Source: a virus | Lineage: Duplodnaviria > Heunggongvirae > Uroviricota > Caudoviricetes | IMG/VR virus record: IMGVR_UViG_2617271072_000004 | Span: 1-64,000 of that record | Length of the DNA: 64,000 nt | Reading direction: 5' to 3' (one strand) | In this document: one piece after another, positions 3,969 through 31,804 of the stretch | How the letters are laid out: every line of letters begins with the position of its first letter | How positions within the stretch are numbered: the stretch's first letter is position 1 | The notes under the pieces: generated by a model | What the model was told of the DNA's origin: nothing | Databases searched by the model: none | Seen by the model: the letters and a program-made list of their open reading frames with translations, nothing else | Position numbers and translations under genes: made by a program

Positions 3969-4042
3969 GTCTCTTATGCAACATAACCGGTTGAGAAGTT
4001 ACTTTGCATACCATTACCTCCTGACAACGTAGGAGGGAACTT

Positions 4043-4372
4043 GTGCTTGACACACAGGAATTAGCTCCAGTTGCTATTGCGCTCCTGCTTTCAGTAATTG
4101 GTGGGATAGGCACGTTCCTGATGGATGTCCGAGACGGTCGCCAGTCTGGCAATTTGTTGGGATTGGTTACGGAGATCTTTGTTGCAGTGACAGCTGGCGC
4201 GGTGGCGTACCTATTGGGGCAACATGAGGGCTGGGAGTTATCAATTACGTACTTAATGGTAACGATAGCCAGCAATAACGGTCATGAGGTGATTTCAGGG
4301 ATGAAACGAGTGAATATCGATAGCATTCTGAATGTTCTTACAAGTTTGGTGAAAAAGGGAGGTGGGAAATGA
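4043..4372 (+). CDS. lydA: holin
   Basis: 109 aa, hydrophobic; GTG start after AGGAGGG RBS; symbol assigned by P1 gene order. Confidence 0.55.
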   Translation: MLDTQELAPVAIALLLSVIGGIGTFLMDVRDGRQSGNLLGLVTEIFVAVTAGAVAYLLGQHEGWELSITYLMVTIASNNGHEVISGMKRVNIDSILNVLTSLVKKGGGK

Positions 4373-4812
4373 TTGGCTGGGGTGTATGCGTTCTTGCGTT
4401 AGCCTTAGCCGATCGCTATTTGCTAAAACGCAAGGACATCACGCATTTAGAACTTGGTGATGTGGAAATTAAACCGGGTTTCATCCGGGTGCCGTTCAAA
4501 TACCGGTCTAAATTCCCGTTTTTGCGCGGCGCAACGGTCAGATATTGGATCCGCGATGTTCAGAAGCCGACGACTGTGATTGAAGGCGAACAACGTTGTC
4601 TGACGTCGGCTGAACAGGGCGAAAACAGTGAATGGTTGTACATACCCACTGAATATATGGGTAAAGGAGAACGGCTGTGGCATTTCAACGTCATGGTTAC
4701 GCATGGCGACTCGTTCATTAACCCGTTGTATCGGATTTTCCCTGTTACTCAGCAAATCCGCAGAAGTTACGTAATAAATCTCGCACAGGATGTGTCAGAT
4801 GACGAAAAATAA
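4369..4812 (+). CDS. lydB: antiholin
   Basis: 147 aa, start overlaps lydA stop; symbol assigned by P1 gene order. Confidence 0.55.
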   Translation: MIGWGVCVLALALADRYLLKRKDITHLELGDVEIKPGFIRVPFKYRSKFPFLRGATVRYWIRDVQKPTTVIEGEQRCLTSAEQGENSEWLYIPTEYMGKGERLWHFNVMVTHGDSFINPLYRIFPVTQQIRRSYVINLAQDVSDDEK

Positions 4813-5401
4813 GTATGCAACGGTCGATTTTGACCAGGTTAATGAAAAGGGGCTGAAATCCCTTATCGCGGCGATCAATAAAACCGGTGTTACGGTAATT
4901 GAGGTTGACTCCAGCAACCGCGCAACAACGAAAGATGGCGTTAAAGTTAAAACCGCAAAGCTGGTTCTTAACGACGGACAAATTCTTGCCATACAGGTAA
5001 ACGATACTGGCGATATATCGTCTGTGAGGCTGAATGGAAAAGCTATTCCTAACGCTCAGTCGCCGGATATCAAGACGCTTGGTACCGTCATGGGGCAAGC
5101 GGCCCGCAAAAACTCCGCAAAATTCCAGAAATCACTGATCGCCAAAGCGAAACGTGTTGCCAATCCGGTAGACAAGAAACCGGCAGTAAAATCCAACTTT
5201 CAGCGCCTGCAAGAGGCAAAACAGCGGAATGCTCAGGTGGTTGCCGCTTATAAATCAGCGCAGAACTCGGTGTCTTTCAATCAACAGCAGATCACTGATT
5301 TGCGGGCGAAGCTGGATAAGGAGACAGGCCGACTCAATAACGAAAAGGCCCGAAATGGCGAACTCAAACGCCGTCTTAAGCAACTGAAAGCAGGAAATTA
5401 A
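4799..5401 (+). CDS. hdf: Hdf, homologue of a DarA fragment
   Basis: Contains ARKNSAKFQKSLIAKAKR, matching EKNSAKFQRAQKKKKA in DarA; directly upstream of darA. Confidence 0.7.
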   Translation: MTKNKYATVDFDQVNEKGLKSLIAAINKTGVTVIEVDSSNRATTKDGVKVKTAKLVLNDGQILAIQVNDTGDISSVRLNGKAIPNAQSPDIKTLGTVMGQAARKNSAKFQKSLIAKAKRVANPVDKKPAVKSNFQRLQEAKQRNAQVVAAYKSAQNSVSFNQQQITDLRAKLDKETGRLNNEKARNGELKRRLKQLKAGN

Positions 5402-5402
5402 C

Positions 5403-7322: not shown

Positions 7323-7684
7323 CACTATCAGCTATTGAGTTAATGGATCTCAGCGATAAGTTGGATGCTCTGATGTCCAAAGCGGCAACCGCGAGTGGCA
7401 TGGAGTTGCTGGATATCAGCGATGAAATTGACCAGATCATGCAACAGATGGGGTACGGCGCGTCCGGCGGTGGTAGTGGCGAGGAAAAACAACCTTCGGA
7501 ACATGATGGTGTGCCAAAACTGGTTGCTGATTTCCTGGCTGATAAATTCGTCGATCAGAGCACAGATGCATTTATCGGTACCTTGCAGGACTTGAGTCAA
7601 TATGTTGGCACATACATCGACCTGGACCAGGTTAAACAGCACACGGCGGCATGGATAGCCGCCAACATTAAAGAGGCAGCATAA
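7319..7684 (+). CDS. ddrA: DdrA
   Basis: 121 aa, overlaps darA stop. Confidence 0.65.
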   Translation: MTLSAIELMDLSDKLDALMSKAATASGMELLDISDEIDQIMQQMGYGASGGGSGEEKQPSEHDGVPKLVADFLADKFVDQSTDAFIGTLQDLSQYVGTYIDLDQVKQHTAAWIAANIKEAA

Positions 7685-7696
7685 GGCGTAACAGGG

Positions 7697-10684
7697 ATGA
7701 GCTTAAGCGATCAGGTGGTAATGGCCACCAGCATAGAAACGCTGATCGAGCTGCTAAAGAACCTGCCCGATTATGGGCGGGTTTCGTATGTGGTGACAGC
7801 GAAGGGAGACGAGGTAAAAACAGCGTTTGATATCGTCGATGCCTCAGCTCTTTTGGTATCCAATACTCTGGATGGGAAAATTAATCCTGACTATCCCCAG
7901 GAACTTCAGCCGCGCGACCGGACCCGCGCATCCAGCCTTCTTCAGGTTAACCAGATATCCAAAGATTTGCGGCCTGCTCAGCTTACCGATTCCGGTTTAT
8001 CCAGCCATGGCGCGCCGATAATTGGTGAGGACAATGCCGTTGAGTCAGGTAATGGACGGACCATGGGGATCATCAAAGCCTATCAGGACGGCAATGCGGA
8101 TCGGTATCGTGAGTACCTGATTGAACATGCGACCGAATTCGGCATACCTCCTGAAAAGGTTGAATCAATGACGGCTCCGGTACTGGTGCGCCGCCGGTTA
8201 ACTAAGGTTGACCGCGTTCAGTTTGCCAAGGACTCAAATATTTCTGATCTTCAGGAAATGGCAGCCAGTGAAAAGGCTTTTGTTGATGCCGACAGCATAA
8301 CACCGGCGATGATGGCGCTGTTTAACCCGTCAGAAAGCGGAGATCTGCTTAGCCGCAGTAATGACGCTTTTATCCGCGGATTCATGACGCAAGTTGGTGC
8401 CACACAGGCTGCTGGCCTTGTAACGGAAGATGGGCGACCAACACGGCAACTTGTAGACCGTATACAAAACGCGATCTTTGCCAAGGCATATAAGGATGCG
8501 CGCCTGGTAAGGATGGTTGCAGAAGAACCTGATCCGGATATGCGTAATGTTCTGACGGCGCTTAATGCGGCGGCCAATGATTTTGTCCAGATGCAGGCTT
8601 TATCAGGTGAAGCGCACAAGCAGGCTGTGACAACTATTGTTGATGGTATTGAAACAGCGGATAGCCTCGATAAAAAGGCGCTGGCGGCATTGAAAGATGC
8701 GGTAGACCTGGTAAGGCAATCGAAGGAGTCAGGCCAGCATATTACCGATGTTATTGCTCAGGGGGATATGTTCAGCGAAACGGCCCCGGAAGTGAAAGCA
8801 CTCGCGTTGTTCATCGTCGCGAATAACCGTAGCGCGAAGCGTATGGCCACCGCCTTTAAGTTGATGGCTCAACGTATCAATGATGAGTTACAGCACCAGG
8901 GCCAGGCGCTGGGGGATATGTTTGGCGGCGGCGATGTGTCGTTACAGGATATCCTTCGCCAGGTGTCTCAGGAACTGGAAAACGAAGGCATGCAAGGGAT
9001 ATCCGGCGGTCTTTTCGAGTCCGTTTCCGGCGGTAGTTACAACGGTGTTGCTCCGTATACCAGTTTGCTATTACATCGGGCATCCGGCATCAAAGACATT
9101 ATTCATCTGATCAGGCTGCTTTCCCGCACAGATCCCCAGGATGAACAGCTTGTACAAGTGCTTGCGCATTTTGTTCGAATGCCTGTTGCCGACGTGAAAA
9201 AATGGTGTCGATTATTCGGTATCAGCAATTCGTTACTTCGCGGCTTGTTAAATCACGCATCCTCCCTTGGGCGCGATGGCTTTGACGAGATAGCGCAGGC
9301 GATAAAAAACGGAGATATGCCACCAGCTATTGACTGGTTTTCCATTCGCCCAACCAGGGTGAAAGCATTCCTTAGCGCGGCGCATTCGGCATCACCATTG
9401 GCAGAAATGGTTCAGAGGTTGTCGCTCATATTCACAGACCATACCGCGTTGGGTGATCTGACTCTGGACGAGATGAAAGACGCCTCCATTCAGTGGGCCG
9501 ATCAACAAAATGAGGTTAACTCAGACTTCTTGCCAGCATTCAGGAAGGCCGTTAGTAAAGCGGATGATGCCCGTGGAATTCTGAAGGCATTTAAGGCATT
9601 GCAAAGTCGTGTTAATAAACATGTCGGTGATATCGATGGGGTAACGGCGGAAGGCCGGGATATCCTTAAAGAGCACGGCATAACGCCAGAGTTTATTGAT
9701 GAGATCAGGACTGATATGCAGCGTGAGGTCGTATCGTCCCTGCAAATCGTAGCCAGAGCGTTGGCGGATGCTAATCCGAAGAGTGCGGCCATTGTTAACC
9801 GGGTTATTGGTGATATTGAAGCATCGGAGGGCATGGGGGCGCTGAAACTCTTCCTTTCGCGAGCGTTTAATCCTAACGGCAATATTCTCCCTGGCATTAT
9901 TGGTGAGGCTAAAAAGTATGTCAGTGAAGAAGAACTTGAGCAGCTTGACCAACTACTTAAGCGATTCTCATATAATCCGCAGACACGCTGGCAAATGAAT
10001 CAGCGAAGTATGGGTTCGGTCCACGAGAAAGTGTTATCTGCCATGAACAGTGCGATCGCAAACTCATCCGTATCTGAAGAAAAAGCTCTTGAGTGGGCCG
10101 ACTCTTTTATCACAGAAGAAGTGGAAGAAGCCCGCGCTGGACAGAATGGTGGGATAGACCTGCGCAAGGAACTTGCTGATATTTATCGCCTGACCGGCGG
10201 GAAAATATCGACCTTATCAAAGGTAGTTCACCACCAGGGAAGGGCATATGCAAATCTAAATGGTGTTGTTGCTGTCAATTTGAACGATGAAAATGCAAGT
10301 GCACTGTGGCACGAGCTGGGTCATCATCTTGAGTACAGTAACCCTGGTTTGTTAGAGAAAGCCCGGTCATTCCTGAAGGCCAATGTTGAAGGGGATAAGC
10401 CATCTTTCGTCAATATCGGTGGGCGTGGCAAGCCTGAATGGTGCTTCAGATCTCGATTGAGTAATATTTATATGGCGAAGGTATACCCGCCAGCCTCAGT
10501 AAGTAACACCGGGAAAATTCGGCAGAAATCACCGACTATTTCCAAAACGTCAGCAACGGAAGTATTCTCTATGGCTCTTCAGTTGTATCATGACAAAGAG
10601 GCCGCTGCCGCATCACTGATGAATGGTGACGGATTGCTGGAACTGTTATTAGGTGTGGCAAAGGAGCTAAATAATGCAGATTAA
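7697..10684 (+). CDS. ddrB: DdrB, large dar-operon protein
   Basis: 995-aa ORF in P1 dar operon position. Confidence 0.7.
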   Translation: MSLSDQVVMATSIETLIELLKNLPDYGRVSYVVTAKGDEVKTAFDIVDASALLVSNTLDGKINPDYPQELQPRDRTRASSLLQVNQISKDLRPAQLTDSGLSSHGAPIIGEDNAVESGNGRTMGIIKAYQDGNADRYREYLIEHATEFGIPPEKVESMTAPVLVRRRLTKVDRVQFAKDSNISDLQEMAASEKAFVDADSITPAMMALFNPSESGDLLSRSNDAFIRGFMTQVGATQAAGLVTEDGRPTRQLVDRIQNAIFAKAYKDARLVRMVAEEPDPDMRNVLTALNAAANDFVQMQALSGEAHKQAVTTIVDGIETADSLDKKALAALKDAVDLVRQSKESGQHITDVIAQGDMFSETAPEVKALALFIVANNRSAKRMATAFKLMAQRINDELQHQGQALGDMFGGGDVSLQDILRQVSQELENEGMQGISGGLFESVSGGSYNGVAPYTSLLLHRASGIKDIIHLIRLLSRTDPQDEQLVQVLAHFVRMPVADVKKWCRLFGISNSLLRGLLNHASSLGRDGFDEIAQAIKNGDMPPAIDWFSIRPTRVKAFLSAAHSASPLAEMVQRLSLIFTDHTALGDLTLDEMKDASIQWADQQNEVNSDFLPAFRKAVSKADDARGILKAFKALQSRVNKHVGDIDGVTAEGRDILKEHGITPEFIDEIRTDMQREVVSSLQIVARALADANPKSAAIVNRVIGDIEASEGMGALKLFLSRAFNPNGNILPGIIGEAKKYVSEEELEQLDQLLKRFSYNPQTRWQMNQRSMGSVHEKVLSAMNSAIANSSVSEEKALEWADSFITEEVEEARAGQNGGIDLRKELADIYRLTGGKISTLSKVVHHQGRAYANLNGVVAVNLNDENASALWHELGHHLEYSNPGLLEKARSFLKANVEGDKPSFVNIGGRGKPEWCFRSRLSNIYMAKVYPPASVSNTGKIRQKSPTISKTSATEVFSMALQLYHDKEAAAASLMNGDGLLELLLGVAKELNNAD

Positions 10685-11764: not shown

Positions 11765-13220
11765 TCAGAGTCTATCAAAAATAGAGCCTTTTCTCGGTAC
11801 AAATATTTTCTCATACAGTCGAGTAGCGTAATCATCTGTCATGCCTGAAACATAGTCGCAAATGACGCGCATTTTTTTATCATCACCTTTTGCTTCCTCT
11901 TGATTATATTTCTTTCGAGTTTCTGTCGGGAGAAAACGTATTGGGTCATTTGCCAGTACATTGAATAGTTCCACAATCAGTTTCTGACCTTTGAACTCTA
12001 ATAGTTGGACGTTTTCGTGCTGAATAACTTTGTTCCTAACCAGCTCAAAAATGGCTTTACGTAACTCTTCTACCGCGGCAGGAAGTGCCACTTTATAGCG
12101 TAAAAATTTTACTTTTGAAATCAGAGTTCTGCACTTCAAGCTTAACGCTAGTGATCATCAGATGAACAAGTGTCCCTATGCACTCCTTGCGTAGATAACT
12201 TTCGCCGAACAGTTTTTCAGCTACATCATCGGCTTTTAGATTAAACGAGTCGCATTGGCAAGCTGCAAATAAATGGGATTTGTCCTCGAAGTGCTCCTCC
12301 CACATTTTTTTGTCGATCATCTTCAGAGAAATTGCGTCTTCAAGATCATGGAGTGAGTAGGATATCTCATCAGCCAAGTCCATAATCGTTGTATCCAGTG
12401 CTTTATATATTGTTTCCTTGTGCTTATTCAACGCGGTAGTTTTTACCGTTTTGAATAACTTAACATCATCACTATCAAAAGGTTGGAGTGCGAATCTAAC
12501 AGTGTTCTCCTCAGAGTCCAGGTAACATTTCGGGGGCTTAAATTCGGATGATTTAAACAACCACTCATTGCTTCTTGGCTGTAACTGGCTGTAAGCCCTC
12601 TCATTGACGACCTCTGAATAGCTTGCTGGATATTTCAGTACGCCTAAAATAAGTCTACGGGTGGGATCCAGCCCATTGGTTTCGGTGTACTTATCCAGTT
12701 TGGAGAGTATACGCAGTGTCTGCCCGTTACCTTCAAAGCCGCCATAGGATCTCATGCAGTAGTTTAGTGCGACCTCACCACCATGACCGAAGGGGGGATG
12801 TCCTATATCATGAGCAAGGCAGATAGCCTGCATCAGGCTTGGGTCAGGTAAGAATTTACCCCCCTCATCTGTATCGCGCTTAGACAACTGAGACAAGATA
12901 CCGCCGCCAATTTGCGCTACTTCCATAGAGTGAGTTAGCCGCGTACGGTAGAAATCGCTTTCGCCCAATCCCAACACCTGCGTCTTCGATTGTAATCTCC
13001 TAAAAGCGGAAGAGTGGATTAACCGGGAAAGATCACGTTCATACTCCGACCTTATCTCATTCGGGCGGGTGGTATTGTACCCTTGACGCTCATACCAAGT
13101 ATTTTCTTTGCAGTGTGTCATACGTGTTCCTTTGGGCAGGATAGAGCAAGTCGCCTGCTTAATTGCTGAAGAAAGAAATACAAATTTGTAACGCTGTGGA
13201 TCTTCTTTATGCGTCCACAA
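11765..13220 (-). CDS. Dgt-family dGTP triphosphohydrolase (HD domain), apparent frameshift near 12101-12116
   Basis: RRLQSKTQV, RTRLTHSMEVAQ, HDIGHPPFGHGGE, FEGNGQ and C-terminal DYVSGMTDDYA motifs; ORFs 12093-13220 and 11765-12139 overlap in different frames. Confidence 0.85.
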
Positions 13221-17670: not shown

Positions 17671-20600
17671 ATGAACAAGCTATCTATGGGGGTGTTTCGC
17701 TGTTCAAGTGTCAGCGAAATATTGAAATACATTAGTGCAATAACATCTCACCGAGCGCCGATTAGATACGGCGTGGAAAAGGTGGAAGGCAAAAGCTATG
17801 ACCGACTACGCCGGGAGGCGAATCAGAAGGCGATAGATTTGCTTAATTCGCTGGTGGACGGCGCGACACTGACAGATGAACAGCGCCAGATCCTGGCTGG
17901 GTACACCGGCGAAGGCGGCATTGGCGGGTCCGTCTCCGAATATTACACACCAAAGCCGATCGCTGAAGGTGTCTGGGAGATCATGAAGCTCTACGGCGCG
18001 GACGTAGGTAACACTCTGGAACCATCGGCGGGAACCGGCGTTTTTAATGAGACAAAACCGGTTGGTACGGTGATGACCGCGACTGAGATCAGCAGTGTTT
18101 CCGGTCGTATAAACCAGCTGTTGCACCCGGAAGACAGCGTACAGATTTCTCCGTTCGAACAACTGGCTGTAAGCACGCCTAACGATTCATTCGACCATGT
18201 TGTGGGTAACGTTCCGTTCGGTGGTCGTGATAACACACGCAACATCGATAAGCCTTACGCAGAAGAAACGGACATGGGTTCTTACTTCATGCTCCGCATG
18301 CTGGACAAGATAAAGCCAGGCGGATTCATGTGCGTGATTGTGCCGCCGTCCATTGTTTCAGGTTCAAACATGAAGCGGTTACGCCTGCGCCTATCACGGA
18401 AAGCTGAATTTCTTGGTGCCCACCGCTTGCCTACCGGTACTTTTGACGCAAACGGGACCAGTACAGTTGTTGATGTGGTGCTGATGCGCAAACATCCGGC
18501 AGAGATGGCTGAGAAAATCCCCCTGGTGGATGAAAGCACTCTCGAATCGGCAAATGTGCTTTGGCCAACGTTTATTTCTGGCAAGTGGTTTGAAAAGGAC
18601 GGCCGCCGGTTTGTTCATGGCACCCAGGAAAAGGGCTTCCAGGGGCGTATTGAGGTTCGTGCCGACGGTCAGATTGATAACCAGGCTCTTAAAGCGAAGC
18701 TGATTCATCGTTTCGAAAGCCGTATCGACTGGTCTTTGCTCGATATGGCTGAACCGTCACCGACCGCAGACGTTGTTGGTGAAGGGGAAATGCGCCTGAT
18801 TAATGGCGTATGGCAAAAATATGCTGGTGGTCGCTGGATTGAAGCTGATGCCGGGAAGGAACTTAAGATCGATGCTGCCAGTTATGGCGCGGATAGCTGG
18901 GAGGCTCTTCAGCGTAACCTGACTACAACAGAAGGCCGTCTCGGCATGACATTTACCCAGATGGCAAATGTCCGCGATAAGTACACCACATCAATCAGCG
19001 ACGATATGGTGCAGCTGGTGGACTGGATTAACAGCCAGCCTGAAAAATACCGTGAACGCTTGTATCGCGGGGCGATGATTGGCCGGATGTTAATTGAATA
19101 TCAGGACATGAAGGCCGCCGGGCATAGTGCTGAACAAATCGAACAGCAGCGCCTTTCTCTGGTATCCCGTTTGCAGGCAGAGATTGACCGTTTTGGTAAC
19201 CCCGGTCGCGGTCCGATAGCGAAATTGTCGGGGAGCGGTGCGCGCGCCTGGTTTGCTTTCCGTGGTGCAATTAAGCTGGATGGCACTATTTCTGACGAGC
19301 TGACAGGGAAGCTGGTTACGCATGATTCCAGCGCAAGTTATGACTCCACCAGCTATCAGGACACCCTGCGTTATCTCTATAGCGATCTCACCCGCGATCC
19401 AATCCAGCTCGATGATTTCCGCCTTGCGTTTACCGGCGAACTGCCAGCCAGTGATGAAGAGTTGCTTAATTTATTGGCCAGCACCCCTGGTATTGCGGTT
19501 TCACCGTATGGCGGGATTGTTCCGTTCGCCCGCGCCACCAGCGGCGACATTAACGAGATAGTGGCTCCAAAACAGGAATTCCTCGCCACACTCCCCGACG
19601 GTCCAGTAAAGAACAACGTCCTTAATCAGCTGGCAGCTATCGAAGAGAAGCGCATCAAGACGCCAGCAGAGAATATCCGGTTTAAGCTCAATAGCCGTTG
19701 GTTCGACCGTTCCGTCATTCTGGAATTTTTGCAGGAAAACGGCTATCCGGATCTGCGCTATGTGCAGTCAGTGCAGCTGGAAGGCGACGAAATGGTTTCT
19801 GACACCTATCACGGTGGTGATGGTCTGTTCGTCGGGCACCGATACGGTGTCGTCCAGCGCAAGGATAAAGAAACAGGTGAGATTCGCTACGAGTGGGACC
19901 GTAAATCAGGTGAAAACGCGACCGGGTTCCCGGCACAGCTGGAAAAGTATCTCAATGGTGCGCGTATCGGTGGCAAAGATAGCGCGACGGCGAACGGCTA
20001 CCGCGAGCAGATGGCACTGCTTGAGGACCAGTTCAATAAGTGGATCAAGACGCACGATCGCTACGATGAGCTGGTTGCCAAATACAACGATGTGTTCAAT
20101 AGCAATATCCCGTATGAACACTCTGGCGATCCGCTTGGGTTGAAGGGATTAAGCGGTAAGCGCCAGCCATTTGATTACCAGAATAGCGAGGTGCGCCGAC
20201 TGTCCGAAGATGGGCGCGGCATCCTGGGCTTCGGCACCGGGCTGGGTAAAACCACGACCGCGCTGGCGCTTGAGGCGTTCAACTATGAGAACGGTCGCTC
20301 CACCCGTACTGCTTATGTAGTGCCTAAATCAGTGCTGGAAAATTGGTATTACGAAGCAAAAGAATTCCTGAGTGAAGAGGCATTCAGTAACTACTTGTTC
20401 GTCGGTCTTGATGTGCTGATGGATGGCGATCAGATTCGCCAGGTGCCGGTGCTCAATGAGAACGGTAAACCTGTTCTTGGTACTGATGGCACTCCAGTTA
20501 TGCGCGATGCTCTTAAGCTGGCAGATGAAGCCACTATCACGGCGCGGATGAACGCGATCCCGCACTCAAATTACCGTGCAGTCGTGTTTACCAAAGAACA

Positions 20601-23600
20601 ATACGCCCGCATTCCGCTACGTGATGACACCGTAGATGAGCATGCACAAGACATGCTTTATGACTTCGTTGCCGCCGGGCGCGTAGCCAGCGCAATGGAC
20701 TCCGACTCCCACCGCAAAGAGGCGGCGCGTCGCCGGGTATTGTCGGAGTATTCAGATACCGGTACCGAAAAAGCAGAGAAGTATCCGTACTTTGAGGATA
20801 TGGGCTTCGACAGCGTGATCGCCGACGAAGGCCACAACTACCGCAATAGCTATAAAAATGGTCGCGAAGCGTCACAGCTGGCCTATCTGCCCACCAGCGC
20901 GGTGGCGCAATCGGCGCGAGATATGGCAATCAAAAACGCGTACCTGATGAAAAAGAATGGCGGGCGCGGACCGGTTCTCCTGACTGCAACGCCAGTCGTT
21001 AACACCCCGATCGATGCATACAACATGCTTTCTCATGTTCTGCCGAAAGAATACTGGCAGAAGATGGGGATCTACGGTCCTGATGACTTCGTTAAATTCT
21101 TCGGCAAGACCAGGCTGGAAACGGTACAGAAAATCAGCGGTGAAGTTGAAGAAAAAATGGCGCTGGTGGGCTTTGAAAACCTTGATGCGCTGCGCGGCAT
21201 ATTCCATCGCTGGACAACGCTTAAAACAGCGGAAGACGTTAAGGATACCGTGGAGATCCCGGAGCTGGACGAACACCAGCAGGATGCGCCACTTACTGAA
21301 GAACAACTGGCGGCGTATGAAGAATTGCGTCAGCAGGCGGAAGCGGCAGCCAAAGCCAACAATGGCGTAACGACCTCGGTCAATGAAGACGGCGTGATTG
21401 AGCACGAGAAAGCCCGTCCGATCTTCTCAATAATCAGGGATATGGACCGCGTATGTACTGACATGGACCTGTACTATCGCCGGATCACCTATCGTTTCCT
21501 GCCGGAGTACGCCGATGCGGTGCAGCAGCTGGCGGACAGTTTGCCTAAACAAGCCACCAGCGAAGACGACGACAGTGATGATTCAATCACGCAGCAATCG
21601 CAATACTCCCTGATAGATAAGGGCGAGTTTATTCAGTTGCAGGTTCCGGAAGCGTTCGAGCAGGAAGTGAATAAGCGCCTGGCCAGGTTTGGCATTGACG
21701 AACAGACCGTAACTCACCCCGTTACACCAAAATACGCGAAGCTGATCGCCACGCTGAAGGAGTTTTTCCCGGAAGGTAAGCAAATCATCTTCACCGATGA
21801 AAAAACGCAGCACCAGAAGCTCAAGCGCATTATCTGCAATGCTCTTAACCTTGAACCTTCAAAGGTGGGGATCCTGAATGCTCAGACGGTTGCCGAGGCA
21901 GGTAAAACCGGTAAGAAACTGAAAGCGGTTAAACCGCCGAAAGAGTTACCGGATGAACCAACAGATGCACAGATAGCGAAATACAACGAGCAAATGGCTC
22001 TGTATGACGCCTATATCGCGCAGCAAAATGAAATGTCGCTGGGCGGGCTGGAAAAGATTGCTGCCGACTTCCAGGAGGGACGGACTCCGATCATCATCTG
22101 CAACAAAAAGGCAGAGGTGGGTATCAACCTGCATCGAGGAACGACTGACATCCATCATCTGACGTTGCCATGGACACCAGCCAGTATCGCACAGCGTAAC
22201 GGTCGCGGTGCCCGAGTTGGCTCCAACCGTGCAAGCGTTCGCGTTCACTACTACTGCGGCAAGGGTTCTTTCGATGAATACCGACTGAAGACGCTGAAGC
22301 GTAAAGCAGGCTGGATCTCCGATATCCTCCGTTCAGATAAGTCAGAAATGGAGAACGCCGACGCCAACGATATGATCGAAATGCAGATGTATACCGCTAA
22401 GGATGATGGCGAACGTCTGGCAATGATGCAGGTTCAAATGGATAAGGCGAAAGCCGCGCAACGCGCTCGCCAGAAAGAACAGGCTACTATCGACCTTCAG
22501 AACTACATCAAGGCGCAGCACGCAGCTGGCGAGGATGTGGAGGTACTTACCGCTGAATTAGAGCGAAGCAAAGCGGAACTTGAAAAGACCACCGCCGAGG
22601 TAGCTAAATTCAAACAGGCGGTAATGGCCAAAGCAGCTGATAACGCAGACTGGAAAGCCCGCTGGGGTAGCGTCCATCACACAGACCGTACGTTGTTAGC
22701 ACAGTATCGCGCGTCGTTGAAAAGCGCCATTCAGCGCAAGGCTAATATCTCTCAAGCCATCTCCCGCTATGAGAAATTATTGAACCGTACTCAGAAGGCC
22801 GCGACGGATATCAAACGCCTGCGCCCGCTGGTGGAGGATGCAATAAATAAAGGCATTCTGGATGTTGATCCTGACCTGGTTAACCATGCGAGTGAGTTCC
22901 TTGTTATCGGCGATCGCTCATGGCGTGTAGGCCAATACTACGATTGTGCCGGTGATATCGTTCGCATTAAGTCGCTGGACTTCGACAGCCAGCGCGCAGA
23001 CGTGGAGATTATCTTTACCTTCAAAGGTACCAAATCGGGTAACTGGGATGTGAAGACGCTGGATAAACAGGTTGATGTAACTCCCGATGAAGATGCTGTT
23101 ATGCAGAAAATCAGTGGTGGCGTCTCCATCGCCGGGATTAACGACATCATTTCCTGTGACGATTTCTACCGTTTCCAGCAGCGCGGCATGATCAAAATCA
23201 CTGACTCATACGGCGTTCAGACTACAGAGTCAGGCTATAGCATCGATTTTGTTGGTACCTATTCGGACCCACTGAAGCATGCGGTTTACCCGGATCGCCG
23301 TGACGGCGCGCTGAAGTCGTCAATTGCAAAATGGGTGCTTGGTATGATGTCGGAAGGGAATAACCGCCAGATCCGTTCGGCAGAAACATTCCTGGTTGAA
23401 CTGTTTGGCTCCAATTATGGCGATGTAATCGCGTCATACGGAGATACGCTATCCCCTGAAGCAATTCAGGAGAAAATAGCGGATGCGATCGCCAGAATGC
23501 CGGAAAAAACAAGCCAGGGGGCTACTCGTAACGGGGATTCTGAACTTGAAGTCACCAATGCCATTTTCGGTACCAATGAGTTCCGGGCGTCAGATTATGA

Positions 23601-24438
23601 GATCACCACAGCACAGTTTGGCACCATTGGCATTTACAGCAATAAAGACGAGATCAAACAGTCAATGGACGCTGCAAGCGCGCGCATTGCAGCAGAACGC
23701 AAAGCCAATCTGAATCATGCAGTTTCCGCGCTGACTCAATCGTGGGTAACAGCAATCAGGGAGGCCGCCACCACAGGAAAAATCACACCGGCAATTGCGG
23801 ATGTCGTAAACGACGGCTCTAAATTTATGGATGCCTATAAAATGGATGCGGTGCAGTTGCCATCAGCCTATGGTCAACTCAGCTATCGCATGACCTACAA
23901 CCTGGTATCAATGTTTTCCGACCTTGCCATCCTTGGGCTGGTGGATCTTAACGAGGTTACGCCGGAATTGCTCAGCATGCGCAAGAATCATGTGGAGATA
24001 TTGCAGAGAATTAACACGGTTCTTGCCGGGCGCACCGATGAAGAGAAACAGGCCGACGCTGATCGGATAAACCTGGCCCTTGGCAACATCACGGAGGAAG
24101 AGATTGCCGCCAGAAACGAGAAACAAGAAGAGTTATCATCAATACAGGGTGATGCCACCAGCATAGCTCAGTCTCTTGGTCTGAATTATCGCGTATCCAC
24201 CGCCGACCTGAAGATGATGTACGCACCAAAATTCGCCGCTGGCGAGGTATTTGGGCTTCAGGAAGCCTCAGGCATGAAAGGCGTTCTTTTCCGTGCGAAA
24301 GACGCAATCAAGGCGAAATTCGGCGCTCGCTGGCTGCCAGCGAAGGCGAAGAACAGCGATTTCCCGGGTAACTGGTGGATTATCGAGACAAAACACAACG
24401 TGGCGGACGTTCTGGCCGTCATCCAACAATACGCATAA
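17671..24438 (+). CDS. darB: DarB antirestriction methyltransferase-helicase
   Basis: 2255 aa, the size of P1 DarB; N-terminal NVPF methylase-like motif, central DEGHNYRN and TATPVVNT helicase motifs. Confidence 0.9.
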   Translation: MNKLSMGVFRCSSVSEILKYISAITSHRAPIRYGVEKVEGKSYDRLRREANQKAIDLLNSLVDGATLTDEQRQILAGYTGEGGIGGSVSEYYTPKPIAEGVWEIMKLYGADVGNTLEPSAGTGVFNETKPVGTVMTATEISSVSGRINQLLHPEDSVQISPFEQLAVSTPNDSFDHVVGNVPFGGRDNTRNIDKPYAEETDMGSYFMLRMLDKIKPGGFMCVIVPPSIVSGSNMKRLRLRLSRKAEFLGAHRLPTGTFDANGTSTVVDVVLMRKHPAEMAEKIPLVDESTLESANVLWPTFISGKWFEKDGRRFVHGTQEKGFQGRIEVRADGQIDNQALKAKLIHRFESRIDWSLLDMAEPSPTADVVGEGEMRLINGVWQKYAGGRWIEADAGKELKIDAASYGADSWEALQRNLTTTEGRLGMTFTQMANVRDKYTTSISDDMVQLVDWINSQPEKYRERLYRGAMIGRMLIEYQDMKAAGHSAEQIEQQRLSLVSRLQAEIDRFGNPGRGPIAKLSGSGARAWFAFRGAIKLDGTISDELTGKLVTHDSSASYDSTSYQDTLRYLYSDLTRDPIQLDDFRLAFTGELPASDEELLNLLASTPGIAVSPYGGIVPFARATSGDINEIVAPKQEFLATLPDGPVKNNVLNQLAAIEEKRIKTPAENIRFKLNSRWFDRSVILEFLQENGYPDLRYVQSVQLEGDEMVSDTYHGGDGLFVGHRYGVVQRKDKETGEIRYEWDRKSGENATGFPAQLEKYLNGARIGGKDSATANGYREQMALLEDQFNKWIKTHDRYDELVAKYNDVFNSNIPYEHSGDPLGLKGLSGKRQPFDYQNSEVRRLSEDGRGILGFGTGLGKTTTALALEAFNYENGRSTRTAYVVPKSVLENWYYEAKEFLSEEAFSNYLFVGLDVLMDGDQIRQVPVLNENGKPVLGTDGTPVMRDALKLADEATITARMNAIPHSNYRAVVFTKEQYARIPLRDDTVDEHAQDMLYDFVAAGRVASAMDSDSHRKEAARRRVLSEYSDTGTEKAEKYPYFEDMGFDSVIADEGHNYRNSYKNGREASQLAYLPTSAVAQSARDMAIKNAYLMKKNGGRGPVLLTATPVVNTPIDAYNMLSHVLPKEYWQKMGIYGPDDFVKFFGKTRLETVQKISGEVEEKMALVGFENLDALRGIFHRWTTLKTAEDVKDTVEIPELDEHQQDAPLTEEQLAAYEELRQQAEAAAKANNGVTTSVNEDGVIEHEKARPIFSIIRDMDRVCTDMDLYYRRITYRFLPEYADAVQQLADSLPKQATSEDDDSDDSITQQSQYSLIDKGEFIQLQVPEAFEQEVNKRLARFGIDEQTVTHPVTPKYAKLIATLKEFFPEGKQIIFTDEKTQHQKLKRIICNALNLEPSKVGILNAQTVAEAGKTGKKLKAVKPPKELPDEPTDAQIAKYNEQMALYDAYIAQQNEMSLGGLEKIAADFQEGRTPIIICNKKAEVGINLHRGTTDIHHLTLPWTPASIAQRNGRGARVGSNRASVRVHYYCGKGSFDEYRLKTLKRKAGWISDILRSDKSEMENADANDMIEMQMYTAKDDGERLAMMQVQMDKAKAAQRARQKEQATIDLQNYIKAQHAAGEDVEVLTAELERSKAELEKTTAEVAKFKQAVMAKAADNADWKARWGSVHHTDRTLLAQYRASLKSAIQRKANISQAISRYEKLLNRTQKAATDIKRLRPLVEDAINKGILDVDPDLVNHASEFLVIGDRSWRVGQYYDCAGDIVRIKSLDFDSQRADVEIIFTFKGTKSGNWDVKTLDKQVDVTPDEDAVMQKISGGVSIAGINDIISCDDFYRFQQRGMIKITDSYGVQTTESGYSIDFVGTYSDPLKHAVYPDRRDGALKSSIAKWVLGMMSEGNNRQIRSAETFLVELFGSNYGDVIASYGDTLSPEAIQEKIADAIARMPEKTSQGATRNGDSELEVTNAIFGTNEFRASDYEITTAQFGTIGIYSNKDEIKQSMDAASARIAAERKANLNHAVSALTQSWVTAIREAATTGKITPAIADVVNDGSKFMDAYKMDAVQLPSAYGQLSYRMTYNLVSMFSDLAILGLVDLNEVTPELLSMRKNHVEILQRINTVLAGRTDEEKQADADRINLALGNITEEEIAARNEKQEELSSIQGDATSIAQSLGLNYRVSTADLKMMYAPKFAAGEVFGLQEASGMKGVLFRAKDAIKAKFGARWLPAKAKNSDFPGNWWIIETKHNVADVLAVIQQYA

Positions 24439-24471
24439 CAGGAGCGCCCGGTTCGCCGGGCGTCGCATAAT

Positions 24472-24912
24472 ATGGCCACACTATCTGATACAATAAAACC
24501 GAATAAAACATATCTTGAGGCGGTACTCCGTACAGCGTTGTTAGGAAAGACAGAAGACGAATACGTTGATTTCTTCCTGTCAGGGCTACGCGGGCGATTA
24601 CTGAAAAATCCCCGCCTGTACCGCAGCTATGGCCCATACTGGCCGGAAATTAAAAAATTATTACTGGAGCGCGGTTATGGTAATTTCGGTCGTCTCGTTG
24701 ACCGTGACGTTCGCAAAATTTACCGTTATGACCGCCCGGCGCTGACGCTCATAGCTGCGACGCTCTACAGCCAGGAGCGTTTTGATAATGGTCAGATATA
24801 CTCAGCCTGGCATTTACTGCCAGTGCCTGAAGAGGTTGACGACCAGGACTATGAGTTTGAGTCTTACGATTTGGAAGTTGAAGCCTTGGCACAGGCTGGA
24901 GAGAAAACTTGA
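24472..24912 (+). CDS. ulx: Ulx
   Basis: 146-aa ORF between darB and lxc. Confidence 0.6.
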   Translation: MATLSDTIKPNKTYLEAVLRTALLGKTEDEYVDFFLSGLRGRLLKNPRLYRSYGPYWPEIKKLLLERGYGNFGRLVDRDVRKIYRYDRPALTLIAATLYSQERFDNGQIYSAWHLLPVPEEVDDQDYEFESYDLEVEALAQAGEKT

Positions 24913-25157
24913 AGAAGCGATACTACACAGTAAAGCATGGGACGCTACGAGCATTGCAAGAGTTTGCTGATAAGCATAACGTTGAGGTGCGCAGGGAAGG
25001 GGGAAGTAAAGCTCTGCGCATGTACCGTCCTGACGGAAAATGGCGGACGGTCGTCGATTTCAAAACTAACAGTGTTCCCCAGGGCGTCCGCGACCGGGCA
25101 TTCGAAGAATGGGAGCAGATCATCATAGATAACGCATTGCTTCTGAACGCTGATTAA
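24909..25157 (+). CDS. lxc: Lxc
   Basis: 82-aa ORF overlapping ulx stop. Confidence 0.6.
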   Translation: MKKRYYTVKHGTLRALQEFADKHNVEVRREGGSKALRMYRPDGKWRTVVDFKTNSVPQGVRDRAFEEWEQIIIDNALLLNAD

Positions 25158-25239
25158 TAATCATTTAAAGCCCATATGATATGGGCTTAAACAACAGGAT
25201 CGATATACAGTGTTAGTTAAATATATAGGCGAGAGTTAT

Positions 25240-26250
25240 ATGGAAAAACCTTGGCCGGGCATGCACATTAGAACATCTTGTCTGGAGGATGGTTTCTTTA
25301 GAGCAACGCAACCAAAGTATCTTAATGATCCGTCGAGTGAGTCGCGACTTCTTCCATTTTTTAATAAATTTTCACCAGCCGATTACGCATGGGCTAGAAA
25401 TGAATTTAAGAAAATGCAACGAGATCCATCTTATGTCCCATCTATACAAGAGTTAGAGTATTATTTAAAACCTTGCGGGAAACGATACGGAGAGGATTTT
25501 CCACACTTGTTAATCAATGAAGGTTTTACCTCAATGGATTCATATGATGAATCTAAACTCCAAGAAATAGTAACGTACCTTAACGATTATTTAGTAGAAG
25601 CCGTAAGCTGTCATCTTGGTGTATTCTCTCTATCAAAAAGTGATTGCAATCTACACATGTGGACTCATTATGCATCGATAGGAAAGGGGTTTGCTGTAGT
25701 TTTCGATGAAACACACGATTTTTTTAAAATATATCGGCCGTGTGATGTTAGTTATAATCCAGAAGATAGAGCATCTGTAACCTATTATAAAGGCGCTGTG
25801 CGATTTAATGGCTATCCTGCGCCATCGAGGAATATAGATATAAAGAATAAAGATAATACATTGCATGGGATCTTAAATCGAGATCCAGTTCGCGAGCTTT
25901 TTATTAATAGGCTTCTTTATACAAAAGGTGAAGAGTGGCTTCCTGAAAATGAAAGTAGAATTATTTTTCCATTGGCTGATTGCGAGAGAAAAATAGGAAG
26001 CATTGTCTCTCCATCGATTGATGATTGCCTATTGAATGAGTATCCTGATGTTTTTCATGACTATCATGAAATTAACTTAAAGAAAATTCCTTTTTCTGCA
26101 TTCAAGCAAATTACCTTAGGGTATAACATGACTGAAAAAGATAAAAATATAATTTTAGATAAAGTTAGTTCGAATAAAGAATTGTCTCACGTCAACGTAT
26201 TACAATCAAAACTTGATATATACGGAAAGGTTGTGGTTAAGCCCATGTAA
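25240..26250 (+). CDS. DUF2971-like protein, AT-rich cargo gene
   Basis: VFSLSKSDCNLHMWTHYASIGKGFAVVF matches the FSxS...MWxHYA motif recalled for DUF2971; ORF track starts at GTG 25210, ATG 25240 preferred. Confidence 0.55.
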   Translation: MEKPWPGMHIRTSCLEDGFFRATQPKYLNDPSSESRLLPFFNKFSPADYAWARNEFKKMQRDPSYVPSIQELEYYLKPCGKRYGEDFPHLLINEGFTSMDSYDESKLQEIVTYLNDYLVEAVSCHLGVFSLSKSDCNLHMWTHYASIGKGFAVVFDETHDFFKIYRPCDVSYNPEDRASVTYYKGAVRFNGYPAPSRNIDIKNKDNTLHGILNRDPVRELFINRLLYTKGEEWLPENESRIIFPLADCERKIGSIVSPSIDDCLLNEYPDVFHDYHEINLKKIPFSAFKQITLGYNMTEKDKNIILDKVSSNKELSHVNVLQSKLDIYGKVVVKPM

Positions 26251-26347
26251 TAATACGCTTATGTCTACACTTCATGATAAATACCTTCCTTAACTTAGGA
26301 AGGTTAGTTGTGGGTTTACGCAGAAAGTAACAAATAACCTTCGTAGG

Positions 26348-26989
26348 TTATAGAATATTATTCTTTCCGGTGAGTATTCCTTGAGGAACTCTAGCGCATC
26401 CCATAATTTGAGTTTTCTTGATGATGTTTATATATGACGCTATCAGCGATGAGTCATCACGACTATCCACTTCAGAAGCCATTGCCCTGATGTACTCGGC
26501 GCTGGCAACGTTGTTGTATTCCGTCGCAAAGCAACATAGTAACGTCAGAACATGCTCTGTCGTTATTTCGCTCCAGTTGATGTTGAAAAATTCATCGCCT
26601 TTTTTATCGTGTTCGGAATCGAAGATGCTTTGGTGGAGGATGTATTTGCCGGATTCCTTGCGCGGTAACTTGATCGCTTTCTGGCGTTCCAGCTCCTTGT
26701 AAATCTGCATTGCTTCAATCAGTACCGGCCTGCCGTTCATGAAGGGATCGCGCAACCTTACACGCTGGCCAACTCGACCAGTAATAAAGCTGTTTTCCTC
26801 TTCCACCAGCACGATAAAACCCTTTTCCTCTTTTTCTCGCAATTCGCGCAGCAGCTGGAGTTCCATATCGCGGCGGCGTTCAGGGTAGCTGGTCCGCTCA
26901 GCCATTATCAGCTCGTTATTGATCCATGCAGCAGTCATTGACGCCGGTTTGCCGACGCTCATCGAAACAACGCATATTTTCTTATCCAT
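26348..26989 (-). CDS. hypothetical protein
   Basis: 213 aa from MDKKICVV with AGGGGG RBS; ORF track extends to 27136. Confidence 0.55.
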   Translation of the reverse strand: MDKKICVVSMSVGKPASMTAAWINNELIMAERTSYPERRRDMELQLLRELREKEEKGFIVLVEEENSFITGRVGQRVRLRDPFMNGRPVLIEAMQIYKELERQKAIKLPRKESGKYILHQSIFDSEHDKKGDEFFNINWSEITTEHVLTLLCCFATEYNNVASAEYIRAMASEVDSRDDSSLIASYINIIKKTQIMGCARVPQGILTGKNNIL

Positions 26990-27178
26990 AGCGCCCCCTA
27001 CAAAAAAGAAAAGCCACCAGCGGCGGCTTAGCAATACAACTGAAGGTAGCGCCCGGTACTCAGACTGTGCCGTCCATGGAATATTTGAAAAGGGATCCAT
27101 CCGTACCGGGCGTGTGATGATTCTGACTGAAGTCACTTGTCAGTTGTCAATCATTTATCATTAAAAATAATATATTTA

Positions 27179-27439
27179 TTAGTGCATGATGTTTGCCATC
27201 TCATAGGCGTCAGCCAGTAACTCCATCTCTGACTTGTTCAGCAAGGTGAATTCTTTCTTGCCTCCAACCACACCATCGGCATGAACAGGGACCAGCCAGG
27301 GGTATTTTTCTCTTACTTCAGCCGGTGCTGCATGCTGGTGGTACCATCTACAAAGTGGCAACTGCTTTTTGTGACAACCCGGCGCGGTACGACCGGAGAT
27401 ATGGTGCAGAGACACCTCTTCAGATATTACTCCATGCAT
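27179..27439 (-). CDS. hypothetical ORF abutting the Tn3 truncation point
   Basis: 86-aa ORF; may be the remnant of a backbone gene. Confidence 0.3.
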   Translation of the reverse strand: MHGVISEEVSLHHISGRTAPGCHKKQLPLCRWYHQHAAPAEVREKYPWLVPVHADGVVGGKKEFTLLNKSEMELLADAYEMANIMH

Positions 27440-28458
27440 ATAGCAGGCAATGCAGGGGAGAGCGCCAATGCAGATTTATCCAGATCCTTCAGCGAGCGGA
27501 GCCGTTTTTTCTGCCCAATCTTTCTGGCGTCACGGATGATAACGGCCAGCATGGCGTCCAGAACGTCCAATGCATCATCCAGCGCCAGCGTTTCCCATGC
27601 AAGGACAAAGGCAACCAGAACCGCCATCCTTTTCTGCGGTGACATCCTGGCAATATTGAACACCGAAGTCATACCAGCATAACGTGCGAGATTTTTCAGG
27701 CGCACAGCCGGGAGTGTACTCAGGTTTTCAGCATGCAGGCCAAAATCGTTCAGAGTTTTCCAGCGTTCAATTGCTTCATTAAACGCCGGACCACTGATGG
27801 TCACAGGGCCCTTTTTCAGTGATTCCAGTAAAGACAGGCGGCTGCAATCAGTTGGCCCCAGCAGCATCTCCAGCTGTGAACGCTGTTCGGCTGACGGTAT
27901 CAGTGCCAGTTTGTTCCACAGGCGCAACGTCGCCTTTTCCCTTACCTCTGAAATCAACCGGGTCAGCGTAGTGGCTCCGGGGAGAATAATACGATGTTGC
28001 ATAAGCCACCCTGTCGCCAGATCGAAAAGCAGGCCAGGACGTTCGTTGCTTATCCAGCTCCGGGTATATAAAAGACGGGTAAGGCGAAATGTCCAGGGCC
28101 AGGCAAATTCACGATACTGATAGTGCTGACGTATCAGCGCTGCATGCTCACGGCGGGTATTTTCCCTCTGACCGTATTCTGCAAGAACGGTGATATCACG
28201 AATCCCGAGCTGTCTGGCGGTAAAATGCCGGACGCCGGAAGGAATATGATTCATATCGGTGAGGAAGGTGCCCAGAAAACGGACACATCCAATTTGCAGG
28301 GCAATGCCCAGACGGTTGTGATCACCTCTGCTTTTTCCGATAAATTCCTTGTCTGCTTCATCAAGGTGAAAATATCGTGCCAGCTGAAGCTCATCCGGTT
28401 CACCGGTGAATCTGCCATAGCTTTCAGTCTGCTCAGTGGTCAGAAAGTCAACGGGCAT
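27427..28458 (-). pseudogene. tnpA: Tn3 transposase, N-terminal ~340 aa only
   Basis: MPVDFLTTEQTESYGRFTGEPDELQLARYFHLDEADKEF... Full TnpA is ~1000 aa. Confidence 0.9.
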
Positions 28459-29180
<722 letters not shown>

Positions 29181-29341
29181 TACGATAGGTTAATGTCATG
29201 ATAATAATGGTTTCTTAGACGTCAGGTGGCACTTTTCGGGGAAATGTGCGCGGAACCCCTATTTGTTTATTTTTCTAAATACATTCAAATATGTATCCGC
29301 TCATGAGACAATAACCCTGGTAAATGCTTCAATAATATTGA

Positions 29342-30214
<873 letters not shown>

Positions 30215-30323
30215 CTGTCAGACCAAGTTTACTCATATATACTTTAGATTGATTTAAAACTTCATTTTTAATTTAAAAGGATCTAGGTGAAGATCCTTTT
30301 TGATAATCTCATGACCAAAATCC

Positions 30324-30361
30324 CTTAACGTGAGTTTTCGTTCCACTGAGCGTCAGACCCC
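30324..30361. repeat. Tn3 38-bp right terminal inverted repeat
   Basis: CTTAACGTGAGTTTTCGTTCCACTGAGCGTCAGACCCC. Confidence 0.9.
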
Positions 30362-30384
30362 AATACAAACCCGCTCTTTTGTGC

Positions 30385-30411
30385 AGCCTGGCTCCTTGCC
30401 AGGCTTTTTTA
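30385..30411 (+). terminator. rho-independent terminator just outside the Tn3 right end
   Basis: AGCCTGGC-TCCTT-GCCAGGCT followed by TTTTTTA. Confidence 0.55.
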
Positions 30412-30721
30412 TTTCATCATGGAAGCTGTTAACGCTTTGGATCTTGCTGAACTGATTGAAAGGGCATTGTTTACCTTACCCAGGAGTTCGCCAAATTCCG
30501 CCATCACTCTAGTAAGCCCGCGCCGCGCTTCCTCCTCCGTTGCATTCATCACAAAAATGTTCAGCACTCCGCATGCTTTTAACGGGGAACGCAACAGATA
30601 TCGAGTCGATATCAGGCATCCTATCGCTCAACTTTACGGTGACAATGACAGATGGTGACTGAATTTGAGAGCTTACAGACAGCACCACATATTTTCCGTC
30701 TATTTTGAAATCCTTCCGCAT
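30409..30721 (-). CDS. hypothetical C1-controlled small gene downstream of cre, two frames
   Basis: ORFs 30509-30721 and 30409-30594 overlap in different frames; operator-like site just upstream. Confidence 0.3.
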
Positions 30722-30737
30722 GTGTCACCATAAATAT

Positions 30738-30771: not shown

Positions 30772-31804
30772 CTAGTCGCCATCTTCCAGCAGACGCACCA
30801 TTGCCCCCGTTTCACTATCCAGGTTACGAATGTAGTTCATGACAATATTTACGTTGGTCCAGCCACCAGCTTGCATGATCTCCGGTATTGAAACTCCGGC
30901 GCGGGCCATATCTCGCGCGGCACCGACACGGGCACTATGTCCAGACCAGGCCAGGTATCGCTGACCAGAGTCATCTTTTGCCCCGTAAATCAATCGGTGA
31001 GTTGCTTCAAAAATCCCTTCCAAGGCGCGAGTTGATAGCTGGCTGGTGGATGATGGCGCGGCAACACCATTTTTCTGACCCGGCAAAACAGGTAGTTATT
31101 CGGATCATCAGCTACACCAGAGACGGAAATCCATCGCTCGACCAGTTTAGTTACCCCCAGGCTAAGTGCCTTCTCTACACCTGCGGTACTAACCAGCGTT
31201 TTCGTTCTGCCAATATGGATTAACATTCTCCCACCGTCAGTACGTGAGATATCTTTAACCCTGATCCTGGCAATTTCGGCTATACGTAACAGGGTGTTAT
31301 AAGCAATCCCCAGAAATGCCAGATTACGTATATCCTGGCAGCGATCGCTATTTTCCATGAGTTGAACGAACCTGGTCGAAATCAGTGCGTTCGAACGCTA
31401 GAGCCTGTTTTGCACGTTCACCGGCATCAACGTTTTCTTTTCGGATCCGCCGCATAACCAGTGAAACAGCATTGCTGTCACTTGGTCGTGGCAGCCCGGA
31501 CCGACGATGAAGCATGTTTAGCTGGCCCAAATGTTGCTGGATAGTTTTTACTGCCAGACCGCGCGCCTGAAGATATAGAAGATAATCGCGAACATCTTCA
31601 GGTTCTGCGGGAAACCATTTCCGGTTATTCAACTTGCACCATGCCGCCCACGACCGGCAAACGGACAGAAGCATTTTCCAGGTATGCTCAGAAAAACGCC
31701 TGGCGATCCCTGAACATGTCCATCAGGTTCTTGCGAACCTCATCACTCGTTGCATCGACCGGTAATGCAGGCAAATTTTGGTGTACGGTCAGTAAATTGG
31801 ACAT
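30772..31804 (-). CDS. cre: Cre tyrosine recombinase, reading frame broken three times
   Basis: MSNLLTVHQNLPALPVDATSDEVRKNLMDMFRDRQAF... Indels vs canonical cre at runs 31692-31696, 31382-31383, 31070-31074. Confidence 0.9.

Follow-up and report, generated by a model that had tools for sequence, protein, structure and literature searches.

We analyzed a stretch of 64,000 nucleotides from a P1-like phage-plasmid (Caudoviricetes; positions 1 to 64,000 of the IMG/VR record IMGVR_UViG_2617271072_000004), called the window below, and considered the interval between its genes lxc and mat. This interval carries a gene of the DUF2971/PDC-S31 family, located at 25210..26250 on the plus strand, starting with GTG and coding for 346 amino acids (aa) with a predicted ADP-ribosyltransferase (ART) fold. 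The gene is part of a replaceable cargo cassette (25158..26465; 1308 bp, GC content 0.354) that occupies the lxc-mat slot, hot-spot RD-1 of P1-like elements. The conserved left flank is lxc (24909..25157, plus strand; phrog_2160, 7.8e-57; annotated as Lxc in P1 and P7); the right flank is the conserved part of mat (26466..27136, minus strand; phrog_1837, 2e-107; annotated as Mat or maturation control protein).

In an initial annotation, made from the nucleotide sequence alone, the gene had been given as a 336-aa open reading frame (ORF) at 25240-26250. That a single real ORF is present was borne out; its start had to be moved. The ATG at 25240, an internal codon of the same frame, was rejected, as N-terminal conservation places the start 30 nt (10 codons) upstream: in an alignment of 35 sequences, with 34 homologues at 36-54% identity, the N-terminus M-L-V-K-Y, which matches residues of the GTG-started form, is at least 90% conserved. 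Because of this conservation, and because identical plasmids have the 346-aa form in their RefSeq annotation, the start was assigned to the GTG at 25210.

The GC content of the ORF is 0.354, to be compared with 0.521 in darB, 0.481 in ulx, 0.502 in lxc, 0.478 in mat and 0.482 in the whole window; the AT-richness noticed at the outset thus holds (35% GC in the ORF, 48-52% in the flanks), and the composition is not that of the backbone. The DUF2971 gene is AT-rich foreign DNA, an accessory cargo of the P1-like phage-plasmid. Despite the 35% GC of this DNA, the 346 codons run uninterrupted, and almost every copy of the gene that was found is intact. Two alleles differed in seven codons synonymously and in seven non-synonymously, none of the differences being at invariant positions; the ratio of non-synonymous to synonymous polymorphism (pN/pS) of ∼0.26 is limited evidence, consistent with purifying selection. 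A partner or antitoxin gene was sought in the cassette; the further ORFs there were short, overlapping (55, 44 and 71 aa) and without support.

The gene order in the window is darB-ulx-lxc-DUF2971-mat; in P1 it is darB-ulx-lxc-mod(IS5)-res-mat, and P7 has the P1 order without IS5. The annotations of P1 and P7 therefore agree with the order darB-ulx-lxc-mod-res assumed in the initial annotation and with its statement that mod and res were replaced. The window slot contains no type III restriction-modification (R-M) genes and, apart from the tail of mat, the DUF2971 gene is alone in it.

We compared the slot of the window with the slots of 13 other P1-like elements and saw what had been suspected, a variable cargo site, with fixed breakpoints and differing cargos. 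On the left, similarity of ∼97-98% ends at the lxc stop codon (25153-25161; at 25157 in most of the 13); on the right, it restarts at 26466 (at 26478-26480 in four of the 13), 118 nt inside mat. A type III R-M system of 5.2-6.4 kb fills the slot in P1, P7, phi456 and 813R1; a RelA/SpoT-family protein (373 aa in SJ46) in SJ46 and 673R5; a 434-aa SIR2 protein with matches to ThsA/PDC-S25 in pGD27-62; a 316-aa PIN protein (PDC-S34) in JL22 and pEC5502-2; a YaaC protein with a 169-aa partner in pEC15-3; and a helix-turn-helix (HTH) protein with a second gene in pB1W1-p1 (EAL protein) and Ro157c2YLVW (199-aa hypothetical protein). In RCS47 the slot is essentially empty (157 bp). Cargo occurs on either strand; its GC content is 0.33-0.41 in all cargos and 0.52 in the empty state. 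A systematic sample of the 840 matching plasmid records returned the same cargo set as the compared elements. By its position between lxc and mat, the unrelated low-GC replacements and the same breakpoints in relatives, the window cassette belongs to the RD-1 cargos, and the comparison identifies the res-mod locus of P1 as a slot for defence cassettes with fixed breakpoints.

The hot-spot itself has been described: Venturini et al. 2019 listed RD-1, the res-mod locus (P1 positions 3469-9749), as one of five low-GC hot-spots and found res-mod to be replaced by element-specific ORFs, leaving the replacements uninterpreted (PMC6906374). Their mat-lxc interval is the same as that of the window cassette; a reading of the cargo as defence, DUF2971 and the boundary inside mat do not appear in that paper (PMC6906374). 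A 2025 defence census of P1-like elements names type III R-M, dGTPase, PrrC and CapRel, the DUF2971 gene being absent from it (10.1101/2025.09.12.675607). When we searched the literature for a defence reading of the P1 slot, nothing came up beyond the general account of RD-1 and DefenseFinder censuses in which DUF2971 is not listed. We also observed that several slot cargos fall in close-numbered PADLOC candidates: the DUF2971 protein in PDC-S31, the SJ46 RelA/SpoT protein in PDC-S33 (7e-87), the PIN protein in PDC-S34 and the SIR2 protein in PDC-S25 (ThsA-like). The neighbouring numbers S31, S33 and S34 suggest that the curators may have mined the same hot-spot.

The cassette includes the divergent 3′-end of mat, its last 38 codons and stop (26348..26465, minus strand), with ∼50% nucleotide and aa identity to other alleles. 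Upstream of this tail mat is ∼97% identical between cargo types, whereas the tail is ∼50% identical, each cargo type having a tail allele of its own; the GC content of the tail is 0.37 in the window and 0.48 in the empty RCS47 state.

Two hairpins bracket the gene, as the initial annotation had described, both being within 3 nt of the places given there (25171-25191 and 26286-26305). The left one (25168..25188, 9-bp stem) stands right after the lxc stop and is part of the cassette; its folding energy is −12.1 kcal/mol on the plus strand (z −3.3; none of 200 shuffles folded as well) and −14.7 kcal/mol on the minus strand (z −4.0), and it is probably a terminator of lxc or a bidirectional terminator. 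The SJ46, RCS47, SIR2 and YaaC cassettes have a GC-rich hairpin, each different in sequence, at the same position after the lxc stop. Since a hairpin heads every cassette read at the lxc junction, the left hairpin would be the equivalent of an lxc terminator, and this terminator seems to come with the cassette, not with the backbone. The right hairpin (26283..26304, 8-bp stem) lies between the convergent DUF2971 and mat genes; it is terminator-like on the minus strand, downstream of the mat stop, and makes the central stem of the plus-strand fold of 26251-26347.

With regard to expression signals, 11 matches to the C1 operator consensus (at most 3 mismatches; 0.34 expected by chance) were seen in the window, at 13878, 17725, 30738, 32300, 32383, 32847, 37121, 48974, 51067, 51117 and 54742. 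At this threshold no match falls in 17742-30737, hence none at the cassette or at mat, and the gene is clear of them by ∼4 kb. The annotated P2mod promoter of P1, compared with the cassette junction, gave no convincing correspondence. An antisense promoter-like site is present inside the gene (25586-25614, minus strand; ATGACA-17-AATAAT, 10 of 12 matches), aimed at the 5′-end of the gene; such sites are no more frequent in the region than expected by chance.

The family assignment follows from profile searches. The protein matches Pfam PF11185 (DUF2971) with 27.5 bits against a curated gathering cutoff of 22 (E 8.3e-6), profile positions 1-89 being matched in full; the match expected in the initial annotation was thus obtained, and it begins inside the peptide quoted there as the family motif, at M150-W151 of ‘HMWTHYA’. 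A comparison with the PADLOC hidden Markov models, a defence-database check proposed at the same time, gave four matches, all to the defence candidate PDC-S31, with the best E 1.8e-16. In a wider alignment all 32 of the 32 members match both DUF2971 and PDC-S31 (best E 1.5e-45); the two names therefore denote the same family, of which the window protein is a peripheral member. PHROGs places the protein in phrog_1762, function unknown; a search of NCBIfam gave no match to it.

A HMMER scan of 1.84 billion cluster representatives yielded 6779 relatives at E ≤ 1e-3, a family size counted in cluster representatives at 50% identity, and 37 at E ≤ 1e-30. Judged by sequence similarity, the window protein is in a tight gammaproteobacterial subfamily of a very large family. 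Distant relatives of 260-320 aa align almost end to end; insertions at residues ∼200-235 and 262-286 are specific to the subfamily. Across the 35 aligned sequences (36-54% identity) 36 columns are invariant. In the 32 family members, down to 25% identity, K4, R31, D40, Y154, G160, Y182, K239, E248, R250 and G304 are invariant, and E246, W151, N39, L141 and M150 are at least 90% conserved.

From the 35-sequence alignment we built an AlphaFold2 model with a mean predicted local distance difference test score (pLDDT) of 90.8 and a predicted template modelling score (pTM) of 0.85. This confident model is nearest to DarT-type ARTs. Foldseek searches with the model against the PDB and against the viral BFVD gave nothing at E ≤ 0.001, and the family alignment, used as a profile against PDB chains, matched none of them; as the PDB Foldseek and sequence-profile searches were negative, the ART link is a structural one, of moderate strength.

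Candidate ART motifs can be placed on the predicted secondary structure. The candidate motif I residue, R31 (codon 25300..25302), is on the first core strand (29-31) within F-R-x-T-x-P-x-x-L-N-D, and is invariant in the subfamily as well as in the 32 members. The candidate motif II region (25627..25671) has S140-L-S142 on the next strand (136-142), S140 being invariant within the close subfamily, followed by M-W-T-H-Y154, with Y154 after the following helix. The candidate motif III, E246-x-E248-x-R250 (25945..25959), is at the start of a later strand (248-254). The three follow one another as motifs I, II and III of an ART should, and the triad is assigned putatively on these grounds. Published work predicts DUF2971 to be an ART resembling DarT and AbiGi, with an ExE motif, a strictly conserved tyrosine and little conservation of the motif I histidine (PMC12522546); our alignments agree, the tyrosine (Y154) and E248 showing no variation and E246 reaching at least 90% conservation.

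The cassette was found in 90 of ∼840 P1-like plasmid records and in 2 of 18 P1-like phage records; presence at this position in all P1-like genomes, which by the initial annotation would have spoken against its reading, was not seen, as the gene is absent from most of them. Among 5426 complete E. coli genomes 63 have the cassette (64 plasmid places, one chromosomal). In a tblastn search against plasmids, 96 records had a copy that spans ≥80% of the protein.

Homologues were seen in other surroundings. A Salmonella homologue (48% identity; 8001-9050 of locus L018) is a lone gene of opposite strand between the baseplate spike gene gpV and the tail gene gpS of a P2-like prophage. A Serratia homologue is situated at the end of a prophage beside smpB; a PDC-S64 match (1.6e-37) is found ∼2 kb off, two genes beyond the homologue. 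A Klebsiella homologue, in a small chromosomal island, adjoins a gene for a 509-aa ATPase matching HEC-04 (7e-42), AbiLi, AriA and PtuA, and no phage genes were seen within the 17-kb locus examined. These positions are those typical of lysogen-expressed morons and of defence genes; the copy in the P2-like prophage suggests that the gene family is shuttled among insertion sites of different temperate phage types. A distant DUF2971 paralogue (∼26% identity) was observed in phage SSU5 (NC_018843, 32677-33273) and in ∼189 plasmid records; among the records listed the plasmids are mostly of 105-130 kb, from Klebsiella, Enterobacter, E. coli and Salmonella, and by their size look like SSU5-type phage-plasmids.

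The sole experimentally studied DUF2971 protein is Aristaios, a single-gene abortive-infection system of 316 aa from the Lactococcus plasmid pUCCL641 with validated anti-phage activity (PMC11381338, PMC13064643); it acts by blocking transcription of the phage and production of its late proteins (PMC11381338, PMC13064643, PMC12967558). Like Aristaios, the window gene is a stand-alone DUF2971 gene of similar length (346 aa) on a mobile element, with an ART-like AlphaFold model. Aristaios, however, comes from a Gram-positive host, whereas the window protein belongs to the gammaproteobacterial subfamily; the two are likened by their domain, and among the plasmid records listed by a tblastn search with the window protein none is from Lactococcus. 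PDC-S31 is a defence candidate only, and a search for it by name in the literature library used found nothing; the window protein is one of the 32 members that all match this family, and stands at its periphery (E 1.8e-16 versus up to 1.5e-45).

To DarT of the DarTG system (PDB 7yk3, 7omv, 8baq) the window protein is linked by the resemblance of its predicted ART fold. In contrast to DarT, it matched only DUF2971 and PDC-S31, with no DarT sequence match in Pfam, PADLOC or the PDB; its helical insertions are large and a further region, at the C-terminus, is conserved. The macrodomain partner DarG is absent, the neighbours being lxc and mat. By sequence comparison, the protein is not a member of the DarT family. 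CapRel-SJ46, a validated single-protein, self-inhibited defence of toxin type that acts by tRNA pyrophosphorylation (PMC9712102), is the 373-aa RelA/SpoT-family protein that fills the same lxc-mat slot in phage SJ46, though on the opposite strand and with unrelated fold and chemistry.

Taking these observations together, we consider it somewhat more probable than otherwise that the DUF2971 gene codes for a single-protein abortive-infection or superinfection-exclusion module guarding the lysogen against other phages. A single-gene anti-phage function had been proposed in the initial annotation, and the other slot cargos (CapRel, type III R-M, SIR2), the DarT-like predicted fold and the neighbourhoods of homologues support it. 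The accompanying suggestion of an undescribed system has to be withdrawn: the family is PADLOC PDC-S31, with Aristaios validated (PMC11381338), and the slot is the published RD-1 (PMC6906374).

Such a module could work as follows. Given that the gene begins with GTG, lies between terminators and has no C1 operator close by, its expression in the lysogen would be constitutive and low. Because the cassette encodes no antitoxin, we infer that the protein would be kept inactive by auto-inhibition until an infecting phage provides a trigger. The ART core (R31, S140-x-S142/Y154 and E246-x-E248) may then transfer ADP-ribose from nicotinamide adenine dinucleotide (NAD+) to a nucleic acid or to part of the gene-expression machinery, or, alternatively, may simply consume NAD+. 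Phage gene expression or replication would be halted before progeny form, resulting in abortive infection; the validated protein Aristaios acts on phage transcription in such a manner.

Several points weigh against a defence role of this kind. A scan for sigma-70 promoters found none upstream of the DUF2971 gene, with a total count below shuffle expectation, so that expression in the lysogen is assumed. The PADLOC matches cover only part of the profiles (best stretches 64 of 273 and 152 of 259 positions). In the putative triad R31 takes the place of the canonical motif I histidine. The argument from association is weaker for the HTH + EAL and YaaC cargos, both of which lack a PADLOC match. Finally, it is from context and prediction that we infer the role in defence of the window protein and its subfamily.

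One could think, instead, of an ART that serves P1 itself, in counter-defence or host takeover, by modifying host proteins or defence components, maybe in connection with the Dar anti-restriction genes. Phages do use ARTs for host takeover, such as Alt, ModA and ModB of T4; the predicted fold would fit, and so would the location of the gene, which follows darB-ulx-lxc immediately and in the same orientation. The left hairpin, however, parts the gene from lxc, and the same slot holds defence systems in either orientation. Furthermore, ∼90% of P1-like elements do without the gene, the chromosomal-island homologue has no phage genes in its 17-kb locus, and the copy in the P2-like prophage runs opposite to the late genes, as is typical of lysogen-expressed morons. 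Service to P1 is, then, quite improbable. We think it slightly more improbable still that the gene is a selfish addiction toxin, or a cargo outside phage conflict, such as a eukaryote-acting effector of the kind proposed for some Legionella DUF2971 proteins. ART toxins serve in toxin-antitoxin systems as well as in effector roles, and cargos such as type III R-M and CapRel are able to stabilise the elements that carry them; on the other hand, the cassette has no antitoxin gene and the P1 backbone possesses an addiction module of its own, phd-doc. A prediction that counts ∼18% of DUF2971 proteins among effectors (PMC12522546) speaks for such a role; yet no secretion-system context was seen, the neighbours of homologues being phage or defence-candidate genes.

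A protein with an ART fold need not be a transferase: it could be an NADase, an enzyme similar to RNA 2′-phosphotransferases or a non-catalytic binder, acting in phage conflict or elsewhere. We regard this as unlikely, if deserving some weight, since the E-x-E motif and the invariant tyrosine are typical of active transferases (PMC12522546) and the R-H-R-R tetrad of Tpt1 is not apparent among the invariant residues. That the gene is a decaying passenger, currently functionless, would agree with its being AT-rich foreign DNA in a hot-spot with no recognised promoter; with an ORF intact at 35% GC, 96 plasmid records at ≥80% coverage, a pN/pS of ∼0.26 and 36 columns invariant across 35 sequences, we find this hardly credible.

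One could speculate further about the defence reading. The enterobacterial DUF2971 subfamily might consist of antitoxin-free, self-regulated DarT-like ARTs with an R-S/Y-ExE site, which would recognise a component of the phage directly and silence phage genes through modification of nucleic acids; the lxc-mat site might be a dedicated exchanger of defence cassettes, the Mat tail that comes with each of them hinting at a functional coupling between cargo and Mat. In this full form the proposal is unlikely, and we do not expect all of it to hold.

Other parts of the window have features of interest. Beside ssb, a gene at 12093-13220 (minus strand) codes for a 375-aa HD-domain protein that matches the PADLOC anti-phage dGTPase model (4e-113); we take its position, where ompC/nmpC is found in other P1-like elements, to be the published hot-spot RD-2 of P1-like plasmids (isaA-IS1-isaB). 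With a dGTPase-type gene and the DUF2971 gene, the element has at least two defence-type cargos. Just past mat, a Tn3-family fragment (27469-30361; a truncated tnpA of 343 aa, tnpR, blaTEM and one end), 99.6% identical to Tn3 of P7, substitutes for ∼470 bp of the backbone including a part of ref. Compared with plasmid pLH09-a-D, the cre gene (∼30772-31803, minus strand) has three single-base indels, of which two fall in homopolymer runs, and these break it into three frames. Either cre is a pseudogene or sequencing errors produced the indels.

The family (PDC-S31, Aristaios) and the replacement site (RD-1) were already known. To these the analysis adds the corrected start of the gene, the exact boundaries of the cassette, with which a tail of mat travels, the set of other cargos and the residues invariant throughout the family. 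As the slot is one for defence cassettes, its other uncharacterised cargos (the PIN protein, the YaaC protein with its 169-aa partner and the HTH + EAL pair) deserve testing just as much. Resistance genes, such as blaTEM in the window, are spread by P1-like elements; defence cargo on them therefore affects which phages are usable against their hosts. If the anti-phage role is confirmed, the DUF2971 gene would be the first Gram-negative, phage-plasmid-borne defence of the DUF2971/Aristaios type, and the genetics of E. coli and P1 would offer a tractable way to the target and the trigger of a very large unstudied family.

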